DNA from: Isurus oxyrinchus
Taxonomy: Eukaryota
Reading direction: 5' to 3'
Length of the DNA: 64,000 nt
Assembly: GCA_026770705.1 (NCBI GenBank)
Contig: JANJGN010000013.1
Span: 88,722,001 to 88,786,000 of the forward strand
The notes under the pieces are model-generated. The model did no database searches. It was given only the letters and a program-made list of their open reading frames with translations, and was not told the DNA's origin. This document shows positions 8,386-62,986 of this stretch, piece by piece (the first letter of the stretch is position 1; every line of letters starts with the position of its first letter). Position numbers and translations under genes: made by a program.

Positions 8386-8535
8386 AATAAAAGCAGAAGA
8401 TGCTGGAAATACTCAGCAAGTCAGGTAGTGCCTGTGGAGAGAGAAACAGAGTTAAACAGCTGTCTGAACTGTTGAGTACTTCCAGCATTTTCTGTTTTCA
8501 TTTCAGATTTCCAACATCTGCAGCATTTTGCTTTA
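8386..8535. mobile_element. Old, diverged fold-back element related to the Penelope-type hairpins
   Basis: atgctggaaatactcagca ... tgttgagtacttccagcat are inverted arms and share motifs with the 13718 and 58603 elements. Confidence 0.65.
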
Positions 8536-8947
8536 GTTTAGAAGGAACTTTGTTCTGCATGTAAACATGCTGTATCTAAACTTTTTGAATGTCATATTGG
8601 GTGCATAAAATGGAAAGTGCTCTATTTCTTACAAATAGGTTGCCAAAACTTGATGACAACAAAATTAGCTAAACCCCACTTGCTAAAAATAATGACTGTA
8701 ATCATTGCCACACTGCCTAGAAAATATTACATTCAGGTATCTGGGATTGAACACAAGCTTTACCATTTTGTTTTTGACCTATTTGGCTCTGAGTCTTGCT
8801 GGATGCCATAATACTTTTCAATATCTTTCTGTGACAATTGAGCTCTAAGAGACCACTTATGAAGTAACTTTGTACATCCTGTTAGCTGTGCACATCAATA
8901 CCCATTCCCCCTTGACAGGGCTTCTGGAACTAGGATGTTTTAGCTCC

Positions 8948-10981: not shown

Positions 10982-11230
<249 letters not shown>

Positions 11231-13214: not shown

Positions 13215-14930
13215 GGTAGGTGTTAAGGAAAGCAAGGTAGAAAGGCTGTAAGGTTTAGGAAAGAAATTTCAGAACTTAGGGCATAGAGTGGCTGAAGCTG
13301 CATCCGCTAGTGGTGGAGCAATTAAAGTTGTGGATGCTCAAGAAACCTGAATTACAGAAGTGCAGATATCTCAGGGGGCTTTAGAGTGGGAAGAGATTAG
13401 AGAGATAGGGAGGAACCAGATCTGAGAAGGATTTGAAACCAAGGATGAGGATTTTAAAATTGAGGCTTTGCTTGACCGGGAGCCAACCCAGGTTCATGAG
13501 TACACGCACAGGAGTGAAAGGTGAAGGCATTTGGTATAAGTTAGGACACAGGCAGCAGAGTTTTGGATGACCTCATGTTTATAGAAGGTAGAATGTGGAA
13601 GGCTGGCCTGGTGTGCGTTGGAATAGTCAACTCCGGAGGTAATAAAGTTGCGAATGAGGCTTTCAGCAGAAGAGCTCAGACAAGGGCACAGTCGGTGATG
13701 GTATGGAGGTGGAAGTAAAAACAAAAAAACTGCGGATGGTGGAAATCCAAAACAAAAACAAAAACAGAATTACCTGGAAAAACTCAGCAGGTCTGGCAGC
13801 ATCGGCGGAGAAGAAAAGAGTTGACGTTTCGAGTCTTCATGACCCTTCGACAGAACTTGTTCTGTCGAAGGGTCATGAGGACTCGAAACATCAACCCTTT
13901 TCTTCTCCGCCGATGCTGCCAGACCTGCTGAGTTTTTCCAGGTAATTCTGTTTTTGTTTTTGTTTTGGAGGTGGAAATAGTTGGCCTGGGTGACAGTGTG
14001 GATATGTGGTAGAGGGTTCACCTCAAACATAACACCAAGGTTGCAAACAGTCTGGTTCAGCCTCAGACAGTTACCAGGGTGAAGGGGGAGGTCAGTGGTG
14101 AGGGAGCGGAGTTTGTGGCAGGGCAGGAGACAATGGTTTCACTCTGCCCAATATTGAATTTGAGGAGTACTCGATGTCAGGCAAGCATTTTGACACTGTA
14201 GAGGTACTGGCGTTGTCGAGAGAGGTAGGAATGAGGTAAAACTGGTTGTTGACAGTTTATATGTGGAAACTAACATGGTGCTTTCGATGATGTCACTGAG
14301 TGGTAACATGTAGATGAGAAATAGCAAGGCTCAAGGATCAATCCTTGGGGGACACCAGAGGTAACTGTGTGAGAGCAGGAGGAGAAATCATTGATGACAA
14401 TTTTCCAGCTACAATTAGATAGGTAAGAATGGAACCAGGCAAGGGCAGTCCCACCCAGTGGGGAAGCGTTAGAGAAAGATAATTTGATCAGATGTTGCAA
14501 GGACTGCAGACAAGTCAAGGAGGATGAAGAGGGATAGTTTGCCTTTGTCACAGTCGCATAGGATGTCATTGAGACTTTGAGAAAAAACTTTTTCAGTACT
14601 GTGACATGGCAGAAATCTGATTGGAGGGATTCAAACATGGAGTTCCAGGAAAGATGGGTATGAATTTTGGAGGAGATAACATTTTCGGTTTTGGAGAGAA
14701 AAAGGAGATTGGAGATGGGGGCAGTAGTTTGCAAGGATGGAGACTTGATGGATTGGACTTTTGAGGAGAGGTGATAATGGCGGATTTGAAAGAGAGAGGA
14801 ACAGAACCTGAGGAGAGAGAACTGTTAACAATATCGACTAATGTGGTCCAAGAAGGGAAATTGGGTGGTCAGTAGTTTAGTGGCGATAGAGTCAAGAGAG
14901 CAGGAACTGGGTCTCATGGATAAAATGAGC
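13215..14930 (-). mobile_element. L2 LINE ORF2 remnant, interrupted by the hairpin element
   Basis: Minus-strand peptides GTALAWFHSYLSN, TSGVPQGLIL and FITSGVDYSNA...IQNSAACVLT are typical of L2 RT. Confidence 0.85.
13718..13969. mobile_element. Fold-back (inverted pLTR) Penelope-like insert: 111-bp arms, 2-nt loop, about 14-bp target duplication
   Basis: Arms 13746-13856 and 13859-13969 are near-perfect reverse complements; tggaggtggaa(g/a)ta occurs at 13704-13717 and 13966-13979. Confidence 0.88.
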
Positions 14931-20370: not shown

Positions 20371-20591
20371 GATAAATGAACTCCATTAAAACAACGGGTA
20401 AATATTCCACCTGCTGCCCATGCTGGTTATTCAGGGGACGAGGGAGCTGGGGGTGGGGTCATGATTGGAAACTTATTTGGTGCGGTCCCCAACTTCATGC
20501 CCACTAATCCCTCGCACTGGAATTGGCCACCTCAGATGTGGCTGCCCGCATCTGCACTGCTGCTTGTCAAATGAAGAAAGTATGGCAGAGA

Positions 20592-20696
20592 TAAAAACAA
20601 AAAACTGCGGATGCTGGAAATCCAAAGCAAAAACAGAATTACCTGGAAAAACTCAGCAGGTCTGGCAGCATCAGCGGAGAAGAAAAGAGTTGACGT
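20592..20696 (-). mobile_element. Single-arm copy of the Penelope-like hairpin element, inside an older MITE-like sequence
   Basis: Nearly identical to the left arms at 13718 and 58603; stops at gagttgacgt. Confidence 0.85.
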
Positions 20697-23590: not shown

Positions 23591-24663
23591 AACATCCAGG
23601 AATCAGCGGTAGCTTACTCATTTGAAATGTAATGCCTAATTCAACACAGTATCACCCAAGTACTACTTAGATGGGCATGAACTGAACATGACATTACATA
23701 GTGGAGTTAACCAGAAGAGATATTGCTTCATAGAGGGAATTGTCTCTTAGTTAAAGCCTTCAATTGAAGTGCTAAGAACTGCATGTTATTAACAGACTGG
23801 TTATGGTGATGTCAGAAATCCTTTGCTTGCTTGATTGAATTCAGTCCAAGTGTACAACTGAACAAATGTGAAGAGTAGAGCAATGTTTTTAATTCAGTTT
23901 AAATTAAGATCATCACCTTGTCAACCTAAAGAGAGTCAGGATATTATCTATGTTTAAACTGAATGGAGTAGATTTTGGGTGATGGTGGGTTGCAGCCTGT
24001 TTTACATCTCTCCTCATTCTTATTTCTACTGAAGTCAGTGTTGCACAAAGTCAAGTTTAACCAATGACACAGCTGAATAGGCAGACTGTCATCATTATTG
24101 ATATCTTGAATCATCAGCTGCAAAATCATTCGAACTTGCATAGTTGTCACATTTTGGAATTGTTCACTATTTGGCCTAGGATGCTGTTATTAAATCAGCT
24201 ACCAATGGATTAAATTGACACAAGCTTTGTATAATAAAGATTAGATCCAGAGAAAATATTTGTCCAGACGTACCACATCAGTTTGAGACAGTGGAGTTCA
24301 TTAATATATTCCACCCATAATATGTTGTAATGGCCTCATTGTACTAAGCCCAGTGGGAAGTGGTTAGCTGCCAAAGGAGCCTAGGAGAGTGATAGCAAGT
24401 TTAAACCTGCATTAAGAGACTCGTCTATAAGGCCACCAGAAATCAGTGGCAAAGATGCAGTTTCATTGTATATAATTCTCACTATGCATTGACATATTTG
24501 TAAAATTTATCAATGGTTTTTATTTTGAAAGCTAAGTTAAATGTCACAGATGGAACAATATTCACAGACAGCACAGGCCTTTGAGAAGAGTGGTGGTTGC
24601 TGTGTGGGATTGGTTGGTGGAGTATGTACAATATGTTCTCAAAAATGTTGCTCTCTTTCGTAG

Positions 24664-24743
24664 ATGAGCCCTACCCTCTTCAGCTTATCCCCACAACCAT
24701 GGCAGCAGCAGCAACACCAGGGCTTGGCCAGCTCCAGCTGCAG
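24664..24743 (+). CDS. SOX5: SOX5 internal coding exon ([27 protein letters not shown])
   Basis: ctctctttcgtag acceptor; CAG|gtaaga donor; 80 nt, phase 1 to 0, in frame with the previous exon. Matches SOX5 [28 protein letters not shown]. Confidence 0.95.
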
Positions 24744-26339
24744 GTAAGACAGATGTTAATATTGTGGCTTGCAGGCTTGAAGGACAAGGGCAAGTCTTTG
24801 GAGGAATTGTTTAGGAAGAGTGGTGAATAAAAATCTAACCTTTGATAGATAAATGCCTGTCAGTGACTTTCTGATGGCTCCGTGAATTTACCCAACCTTG
24901 CCCTGGGTTGACATCAACTAACTTGACATGGGTTTGAATCTGGAGCCTTCGTGGTGTGTGTTGAGGAACTGATAATGAAAACCAACAGACAGGAAAATAG
25001 AAAAAGAATGTCAAGGGGATTCCCAGAGATAGATTTATCAAGATGTCCAGTATCATTTTGAATAACGTTTGATCCTCATTTTTTAGTTGAGATGTATCTC
25101 TGTTTTTCCAACAAAACCATATTTTAATTCTCCATCCTGAGTCCTATGTTACAACTCTTGTATAGTTGGAGTATAGTGAGTTGTTCCAAGGCCTCCACCA
25201 ATAATTCATTTATTCTGATGATTGGGAAGTGCTCAGACATAGCCAAGAGCAATGCACCCTCTCATTTTCCTTCTACTGTACTTCCTTTCCTCATAAAGAG
25301 ATGAATATCCCTGTACAGCATGACTGAGATCAGAAACTTTCAGAAATGAGAAAAATAAACTATTACCACTCAGATGGACAAGAAAGTTATTGTGGCAGTA
25401 TTCAAAGAAAAGCAAAGGAATACTTCTGATGTTCTGGTTATCATTTATCCTTCAACCAGATAACATTAAAAAGCAGATGATCTAGCCATTTACCTCATTA
25501 CTGTTTGTGGGACCTGTGTGTCTGTTGCTGCACTTGTCTACAAAACAACACTGATTGCACTTCAAAAACACTTCACTAGCTGTGAAATGCCTTTGGGGTG
25601 TCCTGAAGACGTGAAGCATGGTTTGGAAATGCAAGTTTCTTCTTTCCAGTTCATCACCAGTTGCAAGGTGGATGAATGAAAAAGGAGATAAGCTGTTCTG
25701 AAATATGCATGATATTTTTGCTAATGGTGGTCATAAGGGCAGTATTTATTGCTTGTACAGTTGCATGTCTTATTGAAAGTTCAAAGGAATCCTTGTAGTT
25801 AGGTGATCCCAAACAAGATTAATGTAATTCATGTTTTATTCCTTTATGCCTGCATTGTGATGAGCATTACCTTCACATTCACTAACTGCATCAGCAACAA
25901 ATATCACTGGGGTCCCTTGAGTCGCCATAGATAACTTTATCACAGTTCCACTTCCATAATATTGTCTGTTTCTGCTCCTGCCTCAGCCCATCTCCAGCTG
26001 AAACTCATATCCACCCCTTTGGCAAGTCCACTCTCTAATTGATATCAAAGATCTGCTGGCCAGCATGCCATTTTCCACATGCCATAAAACCTCTGTGCAT
26101 CTGAAAACTTAACAACTGTATCTTATCTTGCACCAATTCCTCACCCATAACCCCTGCCCTTGTTGGCCTATATTAGTATCCAGTCCTCCAATGCTTTCAA
26201 TTTATAATTCTCATCCTGGTGTTTAATTCCCTTCAGCCTCACCCCTTTCTAACTCTGTAATTTCCTTCAATCCAACAAAAGAGCCCATGGACAATATTGA
26301 AGTTGCTTCCATTAAACGCACTGCCCAATTTTTTTTTCC

Positions 26340-46295: not shown

Positions 46296-46432
46296 CTTGG
46301 TACAAGCAATGTGAAGTGGACAATGCAGGACCCACAATGAAGCAATCCCGGTCAATGCAAAATTGCAGGGTTAACACCAACTATGGCAAGGAATGTGTGT
46401 ATTTATAAATGATATCCATTGCTCCATTACAG

Positions 46433-46579
46433 CAGTTGTATGCAGCCCAACTTGCTGCGATGCAGGTGTCTCCTGGAGCCAAGTTACATGGCATGTCGCA
46501 GGCCAGCCTGAGCAACACTCTCTCACCCAACAACATCCAGACAGAGAAAAGCAGAAACACCCCTCCACCCAAAAGCAAG
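46433..46579 (+). CDS. SOX5: SOX5 internal coding exon ([49 protein letters not shown])
   Basis: ccattacag acceptor; AAG|gtactg donor; 147 nt, phase 0-0. Absent from the ORF track in this frame and translated by hand. Matches SOX5 [15 protein letters not shown]...PPPKSK. Confidence 0.93.
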
Positions 46580-50982: not shown

Positions 50983-52889
50983 GGGAGCAAATTTCAAAAT
51001 TTACAGCCTAGGCAGCTGAAGGTACTGTCCCCAATGGCGGAACAATGAAAATCAGGGTTGCGTAAGAGATCAGACTGGAGAGTTGTTCTCGTAGGGTAGT
51101 AGGACTGGAGAAGGTTACAGGCATAGAATATCAAGGTCTTCAAGGGGGTTGGCTGTGAGCTTAGTTGGCTAAAAGTGTAGTGCAGAATAATGCCAATAGC
51201 GCAGGTTCAATACCTGTATTGGCTGAGTAGTTTTTAGGACCTGCCTCATAGCTCTGCCCCATCGTGATGCAGCTGCCAAGCTCCTAGATGTCTTGAATTC
51301 TCCTTGCCTCTGGGGTCATGCAAAAGCAGCCAAGAAAGTGAAGCAGCAGCATTCACCCTTCCTCCACTATAGTTAAATTCCTTAGCAAAGGTTTAACTGT
51401 AAAGTATGACCATCAAAATTGCTTACAGCTTGGACATACTCAAATAAAGAGGAGTCTACCATTATTACTACTGTTAAGGTCTTAGGAACAGGAGAGTCCA
51501 TTCAACCCTTTGAGTCTGCTCCACCATTCATTAGATCATGGCTGATCTGTACCTCAATTCCATTTACTGACATTACTTCCAAAATCCACGAATATTCTTA
51601 CTGAATAAAAATCTATTAATCTCAATCTTGAAAAAACTAATTGCTCCAGAAACCACAGGCTTTTGTGGGAGCGAATTCTAGATTTCCAATACATAGGCCC
51701 CATATGACAGAGATCTGGTGATTAACATACAAAAGTGGAATCTGTTGTCCTTGTGCTTCAAGCATAGTCGCTTTTGAACATTGTAGAATTTTAACAATTA
51801 CTGCAGATTCACTCAAAGATGTCAATGTTGCCAGGAATGGATAAGTTTTACGCTATATCAGCAAATCTTATGGATCTGAGGTTGTGGGGGGCAGCTATAG
51901 TTGTCTGTTTCTCTTCTCTAGGTGCTGAGAGACATTGGAAATGATTTAAGACCTAAAACTTCTGATCTGACATGCAGGTGACCCTGCGGGCCCACCCTAT
52001 GACCCTCATCACAAAGACACCAATTTGACATGAGTGACCTATAGCCCGTCTGCAAGGGCCTCGTCACCCCCACGTCCTTCTGAAGGCAGCTTCCCTGCTG
52101 AAAGGCTGCCACTTGATCTAACATTTAAAATCATATTCCATCGAGAAAACTAGAGAAGCCAATATCTGGAGAAATGTGTTGTTTCTCTCCTGGACTACGT
52201 GTGGTAAAGGATGTTAAGATGTTGGGGGCAGGGAGCGGGGCATGTGGTTTGATTGAAAATTTCAAAATGGAGATTGATAGGTTTTTGTTAGGCAAGGATT
52301 ATTAAGGCTTACAGACCGAGGTGGCTGAACGGAGTTAAGATACAGATCAGCCATGATCTAATTGAACAGCAGAAAAGGCTCAAGGGGCTGATGGGTCTAC
52401 TCCTCTTATCCATGTTCCTGCAAATTCACGAGGCAGCAGCACAGTGTCTGTGTAAGAACAAAATGTTGTTTTGAGTCAAAGCCCCACCACCTCCACCCCA
52501 TGCCCCCATGAACTAATTGTTGTCTTATTAATCAGTCCAGGAGTGTGTGGGCGCAGCTGCAAGACGAACATTATCTGATTCAGCCATCCTGTCATGTGAA
52601 CGTCCTATCTTAATTTGATGCAATTATTTCATCAACGGGATGATATCAGCAGCCTGATTAATTTATAAAGCATGTTTTTGCAACTGAATGTACCTCTTTG
52701 ATTCTCATTATGTGCACTGATAGTGGCAAAATGAGTATTTATGAAGAAGACTGCCAAATCCTCTTGTTTATTGGTTTTTGGAGCCATGAACCGCGGCATT
52801 TAATAAATACTTGCACTCTTTGCGATGATCTCCGGCTGTTTCTGCCTTACTCACTGTGTGGGGTTTTATGTTTCTGTTGTTGTTTTAAG

Positions 52890-53070
52890 GACGAAGTGAC
52901 ACAGCCATTGAACCTCTCAGCCAAGCCGAAAACGCTCGACCCCACAAAATCGCCCGCATCGCCAACCTCACCCCAGATTCCCTCCTTGAAAACGAGCACA
53001 GGACCCAGCCACCTCAAACCTGCCATGTCCGCCACATTGAGCGGTCCTCCCGGCCGAATGACTTCAATAG
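52890..53070 (+). CDS. SOX5: SOX5 internal coding exon (DEVTQPLNLSAKPK...PGRMTSI) containing the PLNLS CtBP-type motif
   Basis: tgttttaag acceptor; ATAG|gtatgg donor; 181 nt, phase 0 to 1. Matches SOX5 DEVAQPLNLSAKPKT. Confidence 0.95.
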
Positions 53071-54004
53071 GTATGGCACCAGCCCAATCTGCCACCTCTT
53101 CTTTTGTTCTTTGTGCCAAATCTGAGTGAGTGATTGAGTGCGTGTGTATGTGTGTTTGTTTGTTTGTGTGTGTCTTTTTTCCAACAGAACACTGTTTACC
53201 AAATGAATGAACTTATGAGTCAGACGTTCTACATGCCAAAAAGGATCCACTGTGCCATGTTTGTAGGGATCTGTCTGACAGAGAAGTGACTTGTTTAAGT
53301 GTTTGAATGGTAGCTGCATCCTATATGATATTCTCTCCTCCCTCACTGCCTCCTCCTTCCCTTCCCTTCCACTTGCTCCCTGTCATTTAGTGTACGTGTA
53401 GTAACCACCTCCTATACTGCCGTTCCTCCTCTATTGCCACCCTCCCCTCCCTCTTCCTTCCTTCCCTCCTCCTCCATTCCTTTCCTCCCCTGCTCCTGCC
53501 GTCCCCACCTGCCAGGGCTCCACATTGTGCCAGATTTAGATTCTGATAACAAGTTGCAGTCACAGCACTGGACTACATCAGAAAACCTGACAATAAGCTT
53601 GAAAAGCAGCAAGTCTCCACTCATAACGAACTTGCATTAATACGGCCAAATTCCAGGGCGTGACTTTAATGAAGGCTGGACATGAAATAACATGTTGGGA
53701 GAAAATTCAGATCAATTCTTTTCTGATGATGTCACTGCAGCTGCTATTTCCTTTTATTCATTTTGTTGAACTGTTTCACATACCTGTAAAAACTTGCAGG
53801 GAAGCATGCACGATAAAGGTGAAAGAATGTAGGTGCTTATTGTTCCATTGTAACTCTTTTTTATCTGCATGCTCAGAGTTTGGTAGAGGAATCACATTTT
53901 CAGAAAGAAAGGGTCACAGAGTAGATTACATCATTTATGTTTTAGTACTGGTTAAGAAGTCGCTGATATTTTTACATGAAACATAAAATATTTTTAAAAG
54001 AAAG

Positions 54005-56914: not shown

Positions 56915-58602
56915 GAATTGTCAATCTGGATTACAGATTGATTCTGTGGAGTCGAATTTGAACCCACAGCCTTCTGATTTACAGGCACACGTACTACCCG
57001 CTGAGTCATGGCTGCTACTTGTCCAAAATAACTGTTGACCAATTGAATAAAAGGCTAATTCATCCTCCTGACTAAACTATGTTATGTGCAGAAGTATTGA
57101 ACATGTTGTCCTAGGCTGCAATCATCTGCCCATATTATTATTGGTTCAATAGGTTTGTGGGATGGGAGTGGGACAGGGAGATTGCTTGTTTTTCTTTTGA
57201 TTCATAATTCATTTCTAAAGAGTCTGTTTGCCTGCTAATTTTAGAATTAGATTCCCAATGGAAGAATAACTTCTTCTTGTATTTTGTGTCGTGGTTTCAC
57301 AGAACCAGCTAGTGAGATATTTGTTCATTTGCTGGAGCTTGTTGAAACTTTGAAGGAGTTTGGGACCTCCACGATCGGCTCAGTTAGTTGTACTCTTGCC
57401 TCTGGGTTAGAAGGTTGTGGGTTCAAATCCCAATTGAATGATTTGATCCTGGAATCCAGGCTATCACTCACAGTGTAGTACTGTGGGAGGTATCAGCCAC
57501 AGGGTTCTGCCTGATGTGCTGACAAATATTTATCCCTTAACCAACATCGCTACAAACAGAATACCTGGTTATTATCACATTGCTGTCTGTGGGATTTTGC
57601 TACGTGCAAATTTGGCTGTATTTTTCTTTTAATTCATTCACAGAGTGTGGATAACAGTGGCAAGGTGGACATTTATTGCCCTTGAGAAGGTGATGGTGAG
57701 CTGCCTGCAACAATACAACTGAATAATTTACTAAGCCTTTTTAGAGGGCAGTTAGGAGTCAGCCACAATGCTGTGGGTCTGGAGACACATAAGGACAGCA
57801 GATCAAGGTCATCAGGCAGAGTCAACATGGTGTTGTGAAAGGGAAATCATGTTTAACCAACTTATTAGAGTTCTTTGAAGAAGTAACGTGCTGTGGATAA
57901 AGAGGAACCAGTGGATGTACTATACTTGAATTTTCAGAAGATATTTGATAAAGTGCCATCTCAAAGGTTATTGCAGAAAAATAAAATCTCATGGTATAGG
58001 GGGTAACATATTGGCATGGATAGAAGGTTGGCTTGATAACAGGAAGCAGAGAGTAGGCATAAATGGGTCTTTTTCAGGTTGGCAAGATGTAATAAGTGGT
58101 GAGCCACCAGGGATTAGTGCTGGACGTCAACTGTTTGCAATTTATATAAATGACTTGGATGAAGGGATTGACAAACTTGCTGATAACACAAAGATAGGTT
58201 GGAAAGTTAGCTGTGAAGAGGACATAGGCCAGGATCTTTAGGTCGGCGAGCGGGGGGTGGGGCCCGCTCACTGACGCGTAAAATGACGCAGGATGATGTC
58301 GGGCGGAACTCCCAAAGTCACCCTGTGTTATTTCAATTTTCAGGTCGGCGGGGGCGCAGCCAAATCAGCTGTGCACTCGCGGACCTGTGAACAGCCTATT
58401 GAGGCCATTGATAAAGTAATTGACTTAATTAATGGACCTGCCCGTCCAACCTTAAGGTTGGTGGGCAGGCTCGGAACCCTGGTGGACTTCAGAAAAAACA
58501 TGAAACCTTATCCACAGGCGGGATGAGGGTTTTTAAAACTTTACTAAAGCTTACAGTTAAAGTGATGGACATGTCCTAACTCATGTGACAGTATCACGTG
58601 AT

Positions 58603-59082
58603 AAAAACAAAGAAAACTGCGGATGCTGGAAATCCAAAACAAAAACAGAATTACCTGGAAAAACTCAGCAGGTCTGGCAGCATCGGCGGAGAAGAAAAGA
58701 GTTGACGTTTCGAGTCCTCATGACCCTTTGACAGAACTTGATTTTGAGTCCAAGAAAGAGTTGAAATATAAGCTGGTTTAAGGTGTGTGTGTGGGGGGGC
58801 GGAGAGATAGAGAGAGAGAGAGATGCTTGTGTAGACAAACAAGCAGTGATACTTGTTTGATACAGTGATACTCACTGCTTGTTTGTCTACACAAGCACCT
58901 CTGTCTCTCTCTCTCTCTCCGCCCCCCCACACACACACCTTAAACCAGCTTATATTTCAACTCTTTCTTGGACTCGAAATCAAGTTCTGTCGAAGGGTCA
59001 TGAGGACTCGAAACGTCAACTCTTTTCTTCTCCGCCGATGCTGCCAGACCTGCTGAGTTTTTCCAGGTAATTCTGTTTTTTT
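58603..59082. mobile_element. Fold-back (inverted pLTR) Penelope-like insert: about 208-bp arms, 22-nt spacer, perfect 17-bp target duplication
   Basis: Arms at about 58641-58849 and 58872-59080; tgacagtatcacgtgat at 58586-58602 and 59083-59099. Confidence 0.92.
58983..59021 (+). ncRNA. Minimal type I hammerhead-ribozyme-like motif with variant core CUGUCGA
   Basis: AGTT-CTGTCGA-A-GGGTC(ATGAG)GACTC-GAAAC-GTC-AACT: stem I AGTT/AACT, stem II GGGUC/GACUC, palindromic ACGU stem III, predicted cut after C59017. Activity is not shown. Confidence 0.6.
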
Positions 59083-61519
59083 TGACAGTATCACGTGATG
59101 GGACATGTCAGGGAAATTTTGTTTCTGTTCCTTGATCATTTTTAAATTTGGCGCCGATCTCCCTGAGAGACTTAGCATGAAAGAGCACTCTCAGCTGAGG
59201 GATTCCCCCCCCACCGCATGTCACACTGGGCGGGCCTTAATTGGCCCACCCACATAAAACCGATCGGAGGTGCGCCTACACATGGCCGCTCCTGCATTTC
59301 CCCCAACGGGGGGAGAATTCTTCCCATAAGGAGGCTACAAAAAGATATAGATAGGTTAAGTGAGTGGGCAAAGATCTGGCAGATGGAGAAGAATGTGGGA
59401 AAATGTGAAATTGTCCATTTTGGCAGGAAGAATATAGGAGAAGCATATTATCAAAATGGTGAGAGATTGCAAAGCTCTGAGGTGCAGAGGGATCTGGATG
59501 TCCTCGTGCATGAATCACAAAAAGTTGGTATGCAAGTAATTAGGAAAGCTAATAGAATGTTACCATTTATTGCGAGGGGAATTGAATACAAAAGTAGTGA
59601 GGTTATGCTTCAGTTGTACAGGGTACTGGTGAGACCACATCTGGGGTATTGTGTAAAGTATTGGTCACCTTATTTAAGGAAGAATGTAAATGCATCAGAA
59701 ACAGTTCAGAGAATGTTTACCAGACTAATGCCTGGTGGGTGGTCTTGTGAGGAAAGGCTGGACAGACTAGGTCTGTATCCGCCGGAGTTTAGAAGAGTAA
59801 GAGATGACTTGATTGAAACATATAAGACCCTGAGGGGTCTTGACAGGGTGGATATGGAGACGTTGTTTCCTCTTGTGGAAGGATCTAGAGCTAGGGGTCA
59901 CTAAAAATAAGGGGTTGCCCCATTTAAAATAGAGATGAGGAAAAAGTTTTGCACTCTAAGGGTCATAGGTGTTTGGAACTCTCTTCCTGAAAAGATGGTG
60001 GAAGCAGAGCCTTTGAATGTTTTTAAGGCAGTGGTGCATAGATTCTTGGTAAGCAAGGGGGTGATAGGTTATTGGGGGTTGGTGGGATGCACATTTCCGG
60101 TTCCTATCAGATCAGCCATGAATGGCAGAACGACTGAGTGGCTTACTCCTGCTCCTGGCTCGTATGTTCGTATTTCCTTCCCTAAAGGTCATTAATGAAC
60201 CAGATGGGTTCTTACAAGAGTCCAGTAGTTTCATGGTCACCATTATTCTAGATTTAAGGAATTGAATTTATATTCCCCAATTGCTGTGGTGGGATTTTAA
60301 CTCACATCTCCAGATTATTAGCCCAGATGTTTAAATCTGTATCTTTCATGGGATGTGGGCATTGCAAGGCCACCATGCATTGCCCATCCCTAATTGCCCT
60401 TGAACCAAATGGCTTGCTAGGCCATTGCAGAGGGCAGTAAAGAGTCAACCACATTGCAGTGGGTCTGGAGTCACACGTAGACTAGACAGCAGATTCTGTT
60501 CTCTAAAGGGTGTTAGTGAACCAGATGGGCATTTACAACAATTGATGATAATTTGATGGTCACCATTACTGATACTAGCGTTTCAATTCCAGATTTTTCC
60601 TTTTATTAATTGAATTTGAATTCAATTCTAGCTGCCTGGGATTTGAACTTATATCCCCAGAGGATTAGCCTGGCCTCTGGGGACATAGGTTCTGGATTAT
60701 TAGCCTAGCAGCATTACCACTACACCACCATCCTACATGACAACAATGACAACACTTTAAAAGTACTTGATTGGCTATAAAGTGCCTTGGGACATACTGA
60801 GATTGAAAAGGGCTGAATATAAATGTAAGTTCTTTCTTTAATACCACCATCGGTTGAACTTTTAAAAATTCATGCGACCATCGACTGCACTCATTGTGCA
60901 CTTCCTATTAAAATTCCCGAGCGGAAGACTACAAAATACCAAGTATCTAAGCTATATGGATCAGGATTTCTTCACTGTTCTGCACTAGATTTCAGCTAGG
61001 GACTGTAATTGGCTTCAGTGCTCCTGGGCTAAAAGGAGAGGAGGAATTTGATCAGGTTCCCAAATCCCCATTGTTACCCAACAACATCTGCTGGAAAGTG
61101 ATGAGTTGTGGACATGAGGTCAATATAAGGACCATGGTTAACTGTGATGTACCTAATAGTTGAATAGCTGGTCAAAACCCATGCCTGGGCCCACACACAC
61201 CAAGAATGGATGCGGCACTGAATGTCAGCTGGTTGATAAAAATTTGGGACTTATAGGGAAGGAGAGAATTGAAGTTTTTTTCTTTGAAATAACTTATTGA
61301 CTCTTCTCAGCTTGTCTCTACTGTCCACAAAATGTGTTCATGTTTTCTTAACTTGAAGAAATTTGGTGTTTCTTAAAAAAAAATAACTGTTTTGTCTTTC
61401 ATGTATTGTAAAACTTTGAACGTTGAGCATAAAGCCCTTGCTGTTTCACTTCAACATGTCGAGTCGATTCCATGAACTTGCTAGTCTTTACTTAATCTTC
61501 CTCTCTCCTTTCTATCCAG

Positions 61520-61692
61520 ACATCCTCTCCTCCATCACATCCTCGGGCTATTTGAATGACCATGACGCCGTGGCTAAAGCGATTCAAGAAGCCCGGCAAA
61601 TGAAGGAGCAGCTTCGGAGGGAACAGCAGGCGCTGGATGGGAAGGTCGCAGTCATCAACAGTCTGGGGCTAAACAACTGTAGGATGGAAAAG
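61520..61692 (+). CDS. SOX5: SOX5 internal coding exon, second coiled coil ([58 protein letters not shown])
   Basis: cctttctatccag acceptor; AAG|gtcagt donor; 173 nt, phase 1 to 0. [27 protein letters not shown] distinguishes SOX5 from SOX6/SOX13. Confidence 0.95.
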
Positions 61693-62986
61693 GTCAGTTT
61701 GCATGCCTGTACTCCCTAGTTGTGTGATTCATTTTTATCGGGACTCTTGCTCGTTTTGTTGCAGCTTGACTACGTTTAGAGAGACAACATGCCTTGCCTT
61801 TTATTGAGAGAGCCAGGCACAGTCCCAGTACTCACAACCCCTCCCCGTTCCGTCTCATTTAATGAAATTTAGCATCTGATTTAGACGAAGGGGTACTATT
61901 TTTAGCACAGAAGCATCAGAAACGACGGAGATCAGAAAGGGCCAGCATTAACTTTGTTTACTTATTTGCGGGAAGGCATAGCCTAATTTAGTTTGGAATT
62001 TCTAATTAAATTAGTTCACGCTTTGCACCAAGTAACAGCATTATCATTTACAGCACAGATAGGGGATTTTGTAAAGCATACAGCAGCCTATATTACATAT
62101 TGTTGCTTTTATTTTTGCAACATTGGGACTTTTCTTTTAAGTAGTGTGTATTTTAAGCAGAGACAAACAAATATAATTCTCAATTAGTGTCACGCCTTTC
62201 TAGAGCAGTCCTCTGTACTGATATCCCATATGAATGCAAGAAATAGCACATCAGTGACCTGTTCAAATAATTATTGACCTGTCACAGATTGGGATTTCAA
62301 TAGTTTCCAGGCATTTTTTTTTAAGTGAAAGAATGGGAGGAAGCACAGAAAACACAGGATACAGTACACTACTGTGAGAGTTTTTTAAAAAATGCATTCG
62401 TGGGATGTGGGTATCGCTGGCTAGGCCAGCATTTATTGCCCACCCTAATTGCCCTTGAGAAGGTGGTGGTGAGCTGCCTTCTGGAACCGCTGCAATCCAG
62501 TTTGGAGATGTGAGATTGAGGACTTGGCTTCAGAGAGTGGCAAAGCTTCTCGGGAACAATTTACATAAAAGTAAAGACAGACAAATCATCAATACTGCAA
62601 AAGCACCTAAGTACTGCATGTTGATTTTTAATACATTCCCAGGATGTAGACATCACTGAAGAAGCCAGTATTTATTGCCCATCTCTAATTGCCCTTGACC
62701 AGGTGGTGGTGAGCTGCCTTCTTGAACTACTGTAAATACGCCCACAATGCTTTTGGGTCAGGAATGCCAGGATTTTGCTCTGGCAACAATGAAGGAAAAG
62801 TGGTCTATATGCAAGCTGGGGTGGTGTGTGGCTTGAAGGGAGACTCAGAGTGATGGTGAGGGTGTTCCTGCAATGCTGATGTTTGTGGCATTTGTTACAG
62901 CTGTGTACCTTGCAAGCCGCTGCAGAGGGAGGGTAAGAGTTGGTGTGGAACTGGAGGCACACATAGGCCAGACCACGTTAGGAAAA

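Follow-up and report, generated by a model that had tools for sequence, protein, structure and literature searches.

The insert in the SOX5 intron

The 64,000-nucleotide stretch of Isurus oxyrinchus DNA analysed here (contig JANJGN010000013.1, positions 88,722,001 to 88,786,000; hereafter the window) carries exons of SOX5 on the + strand, and a 480-bp insert at 58586..59099 lies between the exons at 52887-53075 and 61519-61695. On the evidence of its sequence, this insert consists of two head-to-head copies, both truncated, of the end of a Neptune-type Penelope-like element (PLE). It is flanked by exact 17-bp direct repeats (58586-58602 and 59083-59099) and contains two inverted arms (58638-58849 and 58872-59083) of 212 nt each, which are 97% complementary and 22 nt apart. 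The left arm extends outwards by 35 bp beyond the right arm (58603-58637), and this extension is the known 'tail' of Penelope. The original prediction had recognized the 480-bp insert, the patched 22-nt spacer and the exact 17-bp duplication, all of which stood, but gave the arms as about 208 nt and overlooked the tail; it had also named SOX5 as the host gene, and exons on the + strand were matched on either side. The features of the insert are listed below; positions with a minus sign are counted from the next ATG of the parent element, and published work is cited here and throughout from excerpts of the papers.

58586..58602, + strand: target-site duplication, left copy, 17 bp (the last 3 nt also match the element); single in 14/14 paralogous empty sites
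58603..58851, - strand: arm 1, pseudo-long terminal repeat (pseudo-LTR)/5' untranslated region, parent -36 to -289 relative to the ATG, tail-bearing; 96.5% to a unit in L032
58603..58637, - strand: 35-bp tail, on arm 1 only; a feature described in PMC8557442 and PMC11167929
58700..58738, - strand: minimal type-I hammerhead-like motif, core CUGUCAA (A6U and G8A, a CpG transition), assigned from the sequence; A at this site in 2/100 arms
58850..58871: 22-nt centre, consisting of 2 templated nt, a sense-strand 8-mer, ATA, an antisense-strand 8-mer and C
58872..59083, + strand: arm 2, parent -287 to -74, tail-less; 96.3% to a unit in L032
58983..59021, + strand: minimal type-I hammerhead-like motif, core CUGUCGA (A6U, the family norm), assigned from the sequence; no Rfam match
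59083..59099, + strand: target-site duplication, right copy, assigned from the direct repeat and the paralogous empty sites

In a genome search with the right flank, the 17-mer was present once, with contiguous flanks, in 14/14 other copies of the host repeat that were fetched, and both copies of it at the insert carry private letters of this host-repeat locus. Since the homologous 17-mer is single in all 14 paralogous empty sites, the duplication is regarded as genuine. As many as 3 nt (GAT) of the left junction are shared with the element, and the nicks may therefore in truth have been staggered by about 14, the mode of the family. The 22-nt centre contains two 8-mers copied from beside the junction, one per strand. 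The two arms differ by 6 mismatches, and none of these falls among the 133 positions outside CpG and microsatellite sequence (0/133), in agreement with the young age that had been proposed. The folding energy of the insert was calculated to be -427.7 kcal/mol (z = -49 relative to 100 shuffles).

The parent element

A genome search with the left arm returned 40 scored matches at 99-100%, three of which lie about 3.3 kb apart on C2. These belong to tandem 3,326-bp units (L031 and L032) with an open reading frame (ORF) of 917 aa, which encodes a reverse transcriptase (RT) and a GIY-YIG endonuclease (EN); the Penelope origin that had been suggested is thus borne out by a coding parent in the same genome. 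The RT domain (PF00078, RVT_1) was detected at E 7.8e-08, above the cut-off, and the C-terminal GIY-YIG domain (PF01541, residues 820-854) at E 7.9e-04, with 20.1 bits as against a curated threshold of 22.6. The translation contains a VY..YIG motif and the Cys/His residues of the GIY-YIG endonuclease, a DKG motif, and a CX4CxxC linker between RT and EN that fits the CX2-5CxxC pattern given for Neptune (PMC8557442). No RNase H domain was seen in the ORF. A single RT-encoding ORF with a C-terminal GIY-YIG and tandem units forming pseudo-LTRs are the features of EN+ PLEs, and the motifs point to a parent of Neptune type, a placement to be read with the fact that Nematis shares the linker. The array itself (G000:C2, about 191.927-191.938 Mb) comprises three units and a partial one, with two ORFs open and one frameshifted, and is likely to be a recent source locus.

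In longer copies, the arms run on continuously into the ORF. The SOX5-intron insert contains no ORF sequence, both of its arms ending within the pseudo-LTR. Because the arms map to -36..-289 and -287..-74 of the parental pseudo-LTR, the insert is, as judged from these alignments, a young 5'-truncated inverted copy of the coding PLE and not a separate non-coding element; the distinct non-coding derivative that had been proposed gives way to an ordinary truncated inverted copy, which would be a dead end after integration.

Integration of the family: proposed twin priming and its alternatives

We judge it somewhat probable that such inserts arise by twin target-priming on element RNA from two start sites, probably on one molecule, followed by error-prone end-joining. 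In the course of events that we infer, the GIY-YIG nuclease would nick both target strands about 14-15 nt apart, and the two target 3' ends would prime, probably on a single RNA molecule, with one start at about -73 and the other start at about -37. As the ORF shows no RNase H domain, the first cDNA would be displaced by the second. The two cDNAs would thus tend to end together, in many cases at the RNA 5' end, and their ends would be joined via microhomology or templated patches, which we take to be a Pol theta-like signature, closing the hairpin. A Penelope protein of the anole nicks and extends both strands in vitro from two adjacent internal starts bounding the tail, is predicted to form a dimer, and can dispense with the ribozyme (PMC11167929). 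Two other routes to the same layout were weighed. In the first, which we regard as unlikely, each half of the dimer would prime on and copy its own RNA, the two RNAs usually coming from the same source locus. In the second, which appears quite unlikely, a strand would be copied back on itself, halting about 36 nt short, with later deletions at the centre producing asymmetric arms; self-priming on an antisense template is a published proposal (PMC3846280).

These models were compared in a structure-blind sample (C1) of 69 stretches around the first 100 listed matches of a family 34-mer, in which the exact core was needed in one arm. To this sample were added 38 loci from the left-arm search, which are biased to tail ends, and the copies in the window. 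The two-arm counts leave out open-ended, multi-segment and gapped (40 nt or more) groups.

All 40 closed two-arm inserts of the blind sample have exactly one tail end (at about -37), the other end lying at about -73 in 35 and being shorter in 5. Target duplications are 11-19 bp long in 38/40, and 24 of these are 14-15 bp. Single-segment matches (n = 32) end at the tail in 16 cases, at the tail-less position (about -73) in 15 and elsewhere in 1, and because of this split, -73 appears to be used as a start as well. Copying of two independent RNAs provides no reason for the strict one-tail rule (40/40). The rule also speaks against fold-back copying, in that tail-less starts are common in single-segment copies, yet none of the 40 simple two-arm inserts is without a tail.

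The inner ends of the arms lie no more than 30 nt apart in 35 of the 55 two-arm inserts, and perfect or near-perfect palindromic centres are common in the family; both observations suit fold-back copying. The tail-less arm is longer in 14 inserts and the tail arm in 6. Where the tail-less arm is the longer (14/55), it exceeds the tail arm in the 5' direction by more than 30 nt and by at most 1,147 nt, so that it is not a plain copy of the tail arm, which counts against the fold-back route; two RNAs would account for asymmetric arms directly. When both inner ends lie upstream of -200, they match within 30 nt in 12/29 inserts, as against 2.4 expected (maximum 10 in 100,000 permutations). Such agreement far from the stopping hot spot described below is left unexplained by two RNAs, unless loops are trimmed after joining. 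The junctions of the 55 inserts comprise 24 overlaps, 18 short insertions, 7 blunt joins and 6 insertions of 5 nt or more. In one insert (L128, 680-800), a tail-less arm faces a tail-side partner arm of only 15 nt, as expected from an early-aborted second cDNA. Another (L021, 1021-3029) contains six pseudo-LTR-sized segments (-344..+134, about 476-nt units), tandem and inverted, within one 15-bp duplication, and the short tandem units of this complex insert are retrozyme-like.

Sequence variants were used to compare the templates of the two arms. Five polymorphic non-CpG sites were compared: arms within an insert agree in 37/37 comparisons (11 inserts, several haplotypes), whereas arms from different inserts disagree at the same sites in 373/860 comparisons. 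Interruption patterns in the microsatellite agree between arms in 14/15 readable inserts. Private variants number 12 common to both arms (8 inserts) and 68 in one arm only. Haplotypes and private variants in common are also what fold-back copying would produce.

Several observations weigh against twin priming on a single RNA. The exception among the 15 readable inserts is the SOX5-intron insert itself, whose arms differ at two family-polymorphic microsatellite interruptions and match two different family haplotypes, as two RNAs would predict. This mismatch may reflect two templates or two slippage events; one slippage would also account for the private change at -261, and the difference between the arms at -181 was treated as CpG decay. 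Shared haplotypes would also be expected if the copies came from a single source locus, if subfamilies were active in different periods or if gene conversion took place between the arms. Arm asymmetry can come from later deletion at the palindrome centre, and the 14 versus 6 direction is not significant. The 16:15 baseline is weakened in that no fewer than 6 of the 32 'solo' rows belong to larger or gapped inserts, and one insert outside the 40 (L123, with a 126-nt gap) has the tail on both arms. In the excerpts of the anole work, no difference in start site was seen between the strands and inverted products were not reconstituted (PMC11167929). A further point for two RNAs is the published view that the Penelope hammerheads of metazoans function as dimers of RNA (PMC4209133).

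As regards the structure of L123 (685-1972), its centre is occupied by 126 nt of unrelated DNA, and one arm opens with 13 nt of the -73 type before starting again at the tail.

Where the cDNAs stop

Inner ends in the blind sample are concentrated just 5' of the hammerhead core (42/122 in -182..-168), and only 1/122 lies around the predicted cut (-145..-133). Since the blind sample misses inserts cut on both arms, hairpin centres were also counted genome-wide, with equal patterns and gaps of up to 30 nt. At least 5,025 centres lie at the 5' edge of the hammerhead, 2,351 inside the motif and 585 around the cut; 49 lie near the centre of the SOX5-intron insert, which is itself excluded from the count by its 34-nt gap. 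The centres of the hairpins listed differ copy by copy, and those of the family range from about -107 to -2404, as had been anticipated from the idea that the hairpin is formed anew at each insertion. A fixed-centre miniature inverted-repeat transposable element (MITE) does not fit this variation, nor the duplications of 11-19 bp as against 2-9 bp in MITEs.

The pile-up leans towards representing an RNA 5' end, likely a transcription start, as read from the positions of the ends. A transcription start within the pseudo-LTR is known for Penelope of Drosophila virilis (PMC2377424). Cleavage by the hammerhead was rejected as the cause, since the ends accumulate about 35 nt upstream of the cut. 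Nor was there support for an intron that ends at the motif, as it does in D. virilis, because copies run through the AG at -174/-173 into upstream sequence. A structural stop of the RT at -175 is disfavoured: none of 11 long segments from the next unit stops in -182..-168, and one stops at -186. Because long segments mostly pass -175, the balance tips to an RNA 5' end over a structural stop.

The hammerhead-like motif

The motif at 58983-59021 has the shape of a hammerhead, with stem I (AGUU/AACU), stem II (GGGUC/GACUC), GAAA, an NUH cut site and a palindromic stem III (ACGU); the predicted cut follows 59017. The + strand copy had been described as intact. Neither arm has the canonical core CUGANGA: the + strand core is CUGUCGA, with U in place of the conserved A6, and the - strand core is CUGUCAA. 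A scan of 57500-60200 with Rfam gave no hammerhead match at E<=10, and its only matches were miRNA-type ones below gathering scores, which are attributed to the hairpin. The exact family 34-mer with CUGUCGA occurs 59,315 times in the genome and the same 34-mer with CUGANGA 132 times; U6 was found in 99/99 sampled arms, a sample partly chosen by this motif. Related older families have both CUGUUGA and CUGAUGA cores on the same stems, with changes that, by inspection, preserve pairing. A natural A6C hammerhead ribozyme has low activity (PMC3088659).

A separate non-coding hairpin element whose active ribozyme could cleave the host pre-mRNA is a very improbable account of the insert. The hairpins centred near the hammerhead 5' edge (at least 5,025) and the stems kept in related families are what it would predict, but the variable centres, of which only 49 lie near that of the SOX5-intron insert, the continuity of arms with the ORF in longer copies and the A6U core all oppose it. 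No genomic trace of self-cleavage was found in the blind sample or the genome-wide centre counts, the predicted cut showing no excess of ends (1/122) or hairpin centres (585). Moreover, in the folding prediction the sense-strand motif lies, fully paired, within a 212-bp duplex. Since transcription reaches the antisense arm before the sense motif, which is predicted to be duplexed, cleavage of SOX5 pre-mRNA by the insert is unlikely, and the threat to this transcript that the original prediction had raised recedes; in the pre-mRNA the insert would form a long double-stranded hairpin, not a working ribozyme. The success of the family with a U6 core suggests that fast self-cleavage is dispensable.

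That the palindrome is an assembly artefact, from a fold-back read or a misjoin, is scarcely credible even though no long read or contig spans the whole insert, given its unequal outer ends, 6 arm mismatches, patched spacer, duplication with private letters of the host copy, and a left junction that is crossed without a difference by a 58-nt contig of a public DNA run, albeit with only 23 nt on the element side, which is below the bridging standard.

Three further observations concern the motif. In the parent L032, -202..-173 repeats the 3' half of the hammerhead in permuted order and can pair with the core; such alternative pairing might inactivate the motif. A permuted second hammerhead, with its cut at -176, was weighed and dropped, its GAAA being variable (AAAA, GAAC). 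At the family site corresponding to 58979 in the window, a related organism has almost only the C variant and the organism of the window has both, and the A variant may mark a lineage-specific younger subfamily. The Penelope family is abundant in public runs of the related organism; among the assembled contigs of public runs, neither an empty allele nor, in the related organism, an ortholog of the insertion site was found, from which nothing can be inferred on polymorphism or on dating relative to the split of the species.

Genomic setting and neighbouring copies

The other features of the window are as follows.

52887..53075, + strand: SOX5 exon upstream of the insert; tblastn, 89% to P0007
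61519..61695, + strand: SOX5 exon downstream of the insert; 100% to shark SOX5 proteins
10985-11140, 24660-24782 and 46427-46579, + strand: three further SOX5 exons
58227..59326: host repeat holding the hairpin, about 0.6 kb before insertion, within a long interspersed nuclear element (LINE) fragment; TA (up to CATA) duplication; copies 68-92% alike; the LINE flanks join across it
13716..13966: second hairpin of the same family, with shorter arms, also inside SOX5; centre -176/-173 (hammerhead 5' edge); 11-bp duplication
20586..20696, - strand: solo tail-bearing fragment of the same family, -32 to -144; no duplication found

The nesting at 58227-59326 has three levels, the hairpin lying in a high-copy repeat with an internal imperfect palindrome and this repeat in a LINE fragment; the hairpin was inserted within the imperfect palindrome. 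The nested host elements are presumably a CR1 and a MITE. The hairpin at 13716-13966 belongs to the commonest centre class of the family, and an older relative at 8386-8539 is 74% alike and has lost the hammerhead core.

Comparison with known elements and significance

An inverted pseudo-LTR, a one-sided tail and a target duplication constitute the published layout of PLEs (PMC8557442, PMC3846280, PMC4209133), and the shark insert resembles Pen2a_Av of Adineta vaga (PMC3846280), the PLEs described in PMC8557442 and Penelope of D. virilis (PMC2377424) in its inverted 5'-truncated copy at the 5' end, target duplication, palindromic junctions and variable arms. The tail, on one end only, measures 30-40 bp in known PLEs and 35 bp here, and the inverted pseudo-LTR of Pen2a_Av is 37 bp shorter (PMC3846280). 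The duplications are 14-15 bp in the shark family and 8-10 bp in A. vaga. The likeness to the Neptune clade extends to the single ORF with RT and C-terminal GIY-YIG, the DKG motif, the CX4CxxC linker, the tandem units and the hammerhead-like motif in the pseudo-LTR (PMC8557442). With the minimal type-I hammerheads of metazoan PLEs, the motif shares a short stem I, an extra nucleotide before stem II and a palindromic stem III needing a dimer (PMC4209133), and the same paper notes hammerheads paired on opposite strands at distances of 100-700 bp. The shark core has U6 throughout, whereas U3-A8 (PMC4209133) and A6C (PMC3088659) are the variants reported in these excerpts. As in Poseidon of Anolis carolinensis, two adjacent internal starts bound the tail, both strands are nicked and extended in the model, and cleavage is not needed, but the starts lie 37 and 73 nt upstream of the ATG in the shark family and inside the ORF in Poseidon (PMC11167929). 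Non-LTR retrozymes (10.64898/2026.07.22.740005) and MITEs are likewise short and non-coding, and hammerhead-bearing or of inverted-repeat shape. The shark insert differs from them in its long duplication, its continuity with a coding element and its lack of a fixed centre or of a head-to-tail tandem, the two copies being head to head on opposite strands.

In twin priming of LINE-1, the element RNA is the template for priming by both target ends, and the result is an inversion within a single target duplication, with two pieces that do not overlap. In the shark insert, the two arms span the same part of the element, and their starts are two fixed sites. Neither a description of this shark family nor a twin-priming model for Penelope was found in the open-access literature searched.

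As a single copy the insert is ordinary, and its value lies in the statistics of the family, which, unlike the PLEs with inverted pseudo-LTRs compared above, is present in tens of thousands of copies, so that the layout can be counted. The final steps of PLE integration, and the reason that inverted repeats with a tail on one side are left behind, are unsettled, PMC3846280 proposing antisense self-priming and the later steps in PMC11167929 being unvalidated. In a young family whose ORFs are intact and whose copies number tens of thousands, the problem becomes one of countable rules: one tail, a 14-15-bp stagger, shared haplotypes and a stop just 5' of the hammerhead. It is conceivable, though we hold the case for it a little short of balanced, that PLEs in general integrate symmetrically, a dimer cutting about 14-15 nt apart and reading one RNA twice, with the one-sided-tail inverted repeat as the direct product; in this family, that would occur without a canonical hammerhead, and the commonest product would be a hairpin of about 240 bp that stops at the RNA 5' end, immediately ahead of the motif. 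Lying in introns by the thousand, such hairpins would supply a large amount of double-stranded RNA.

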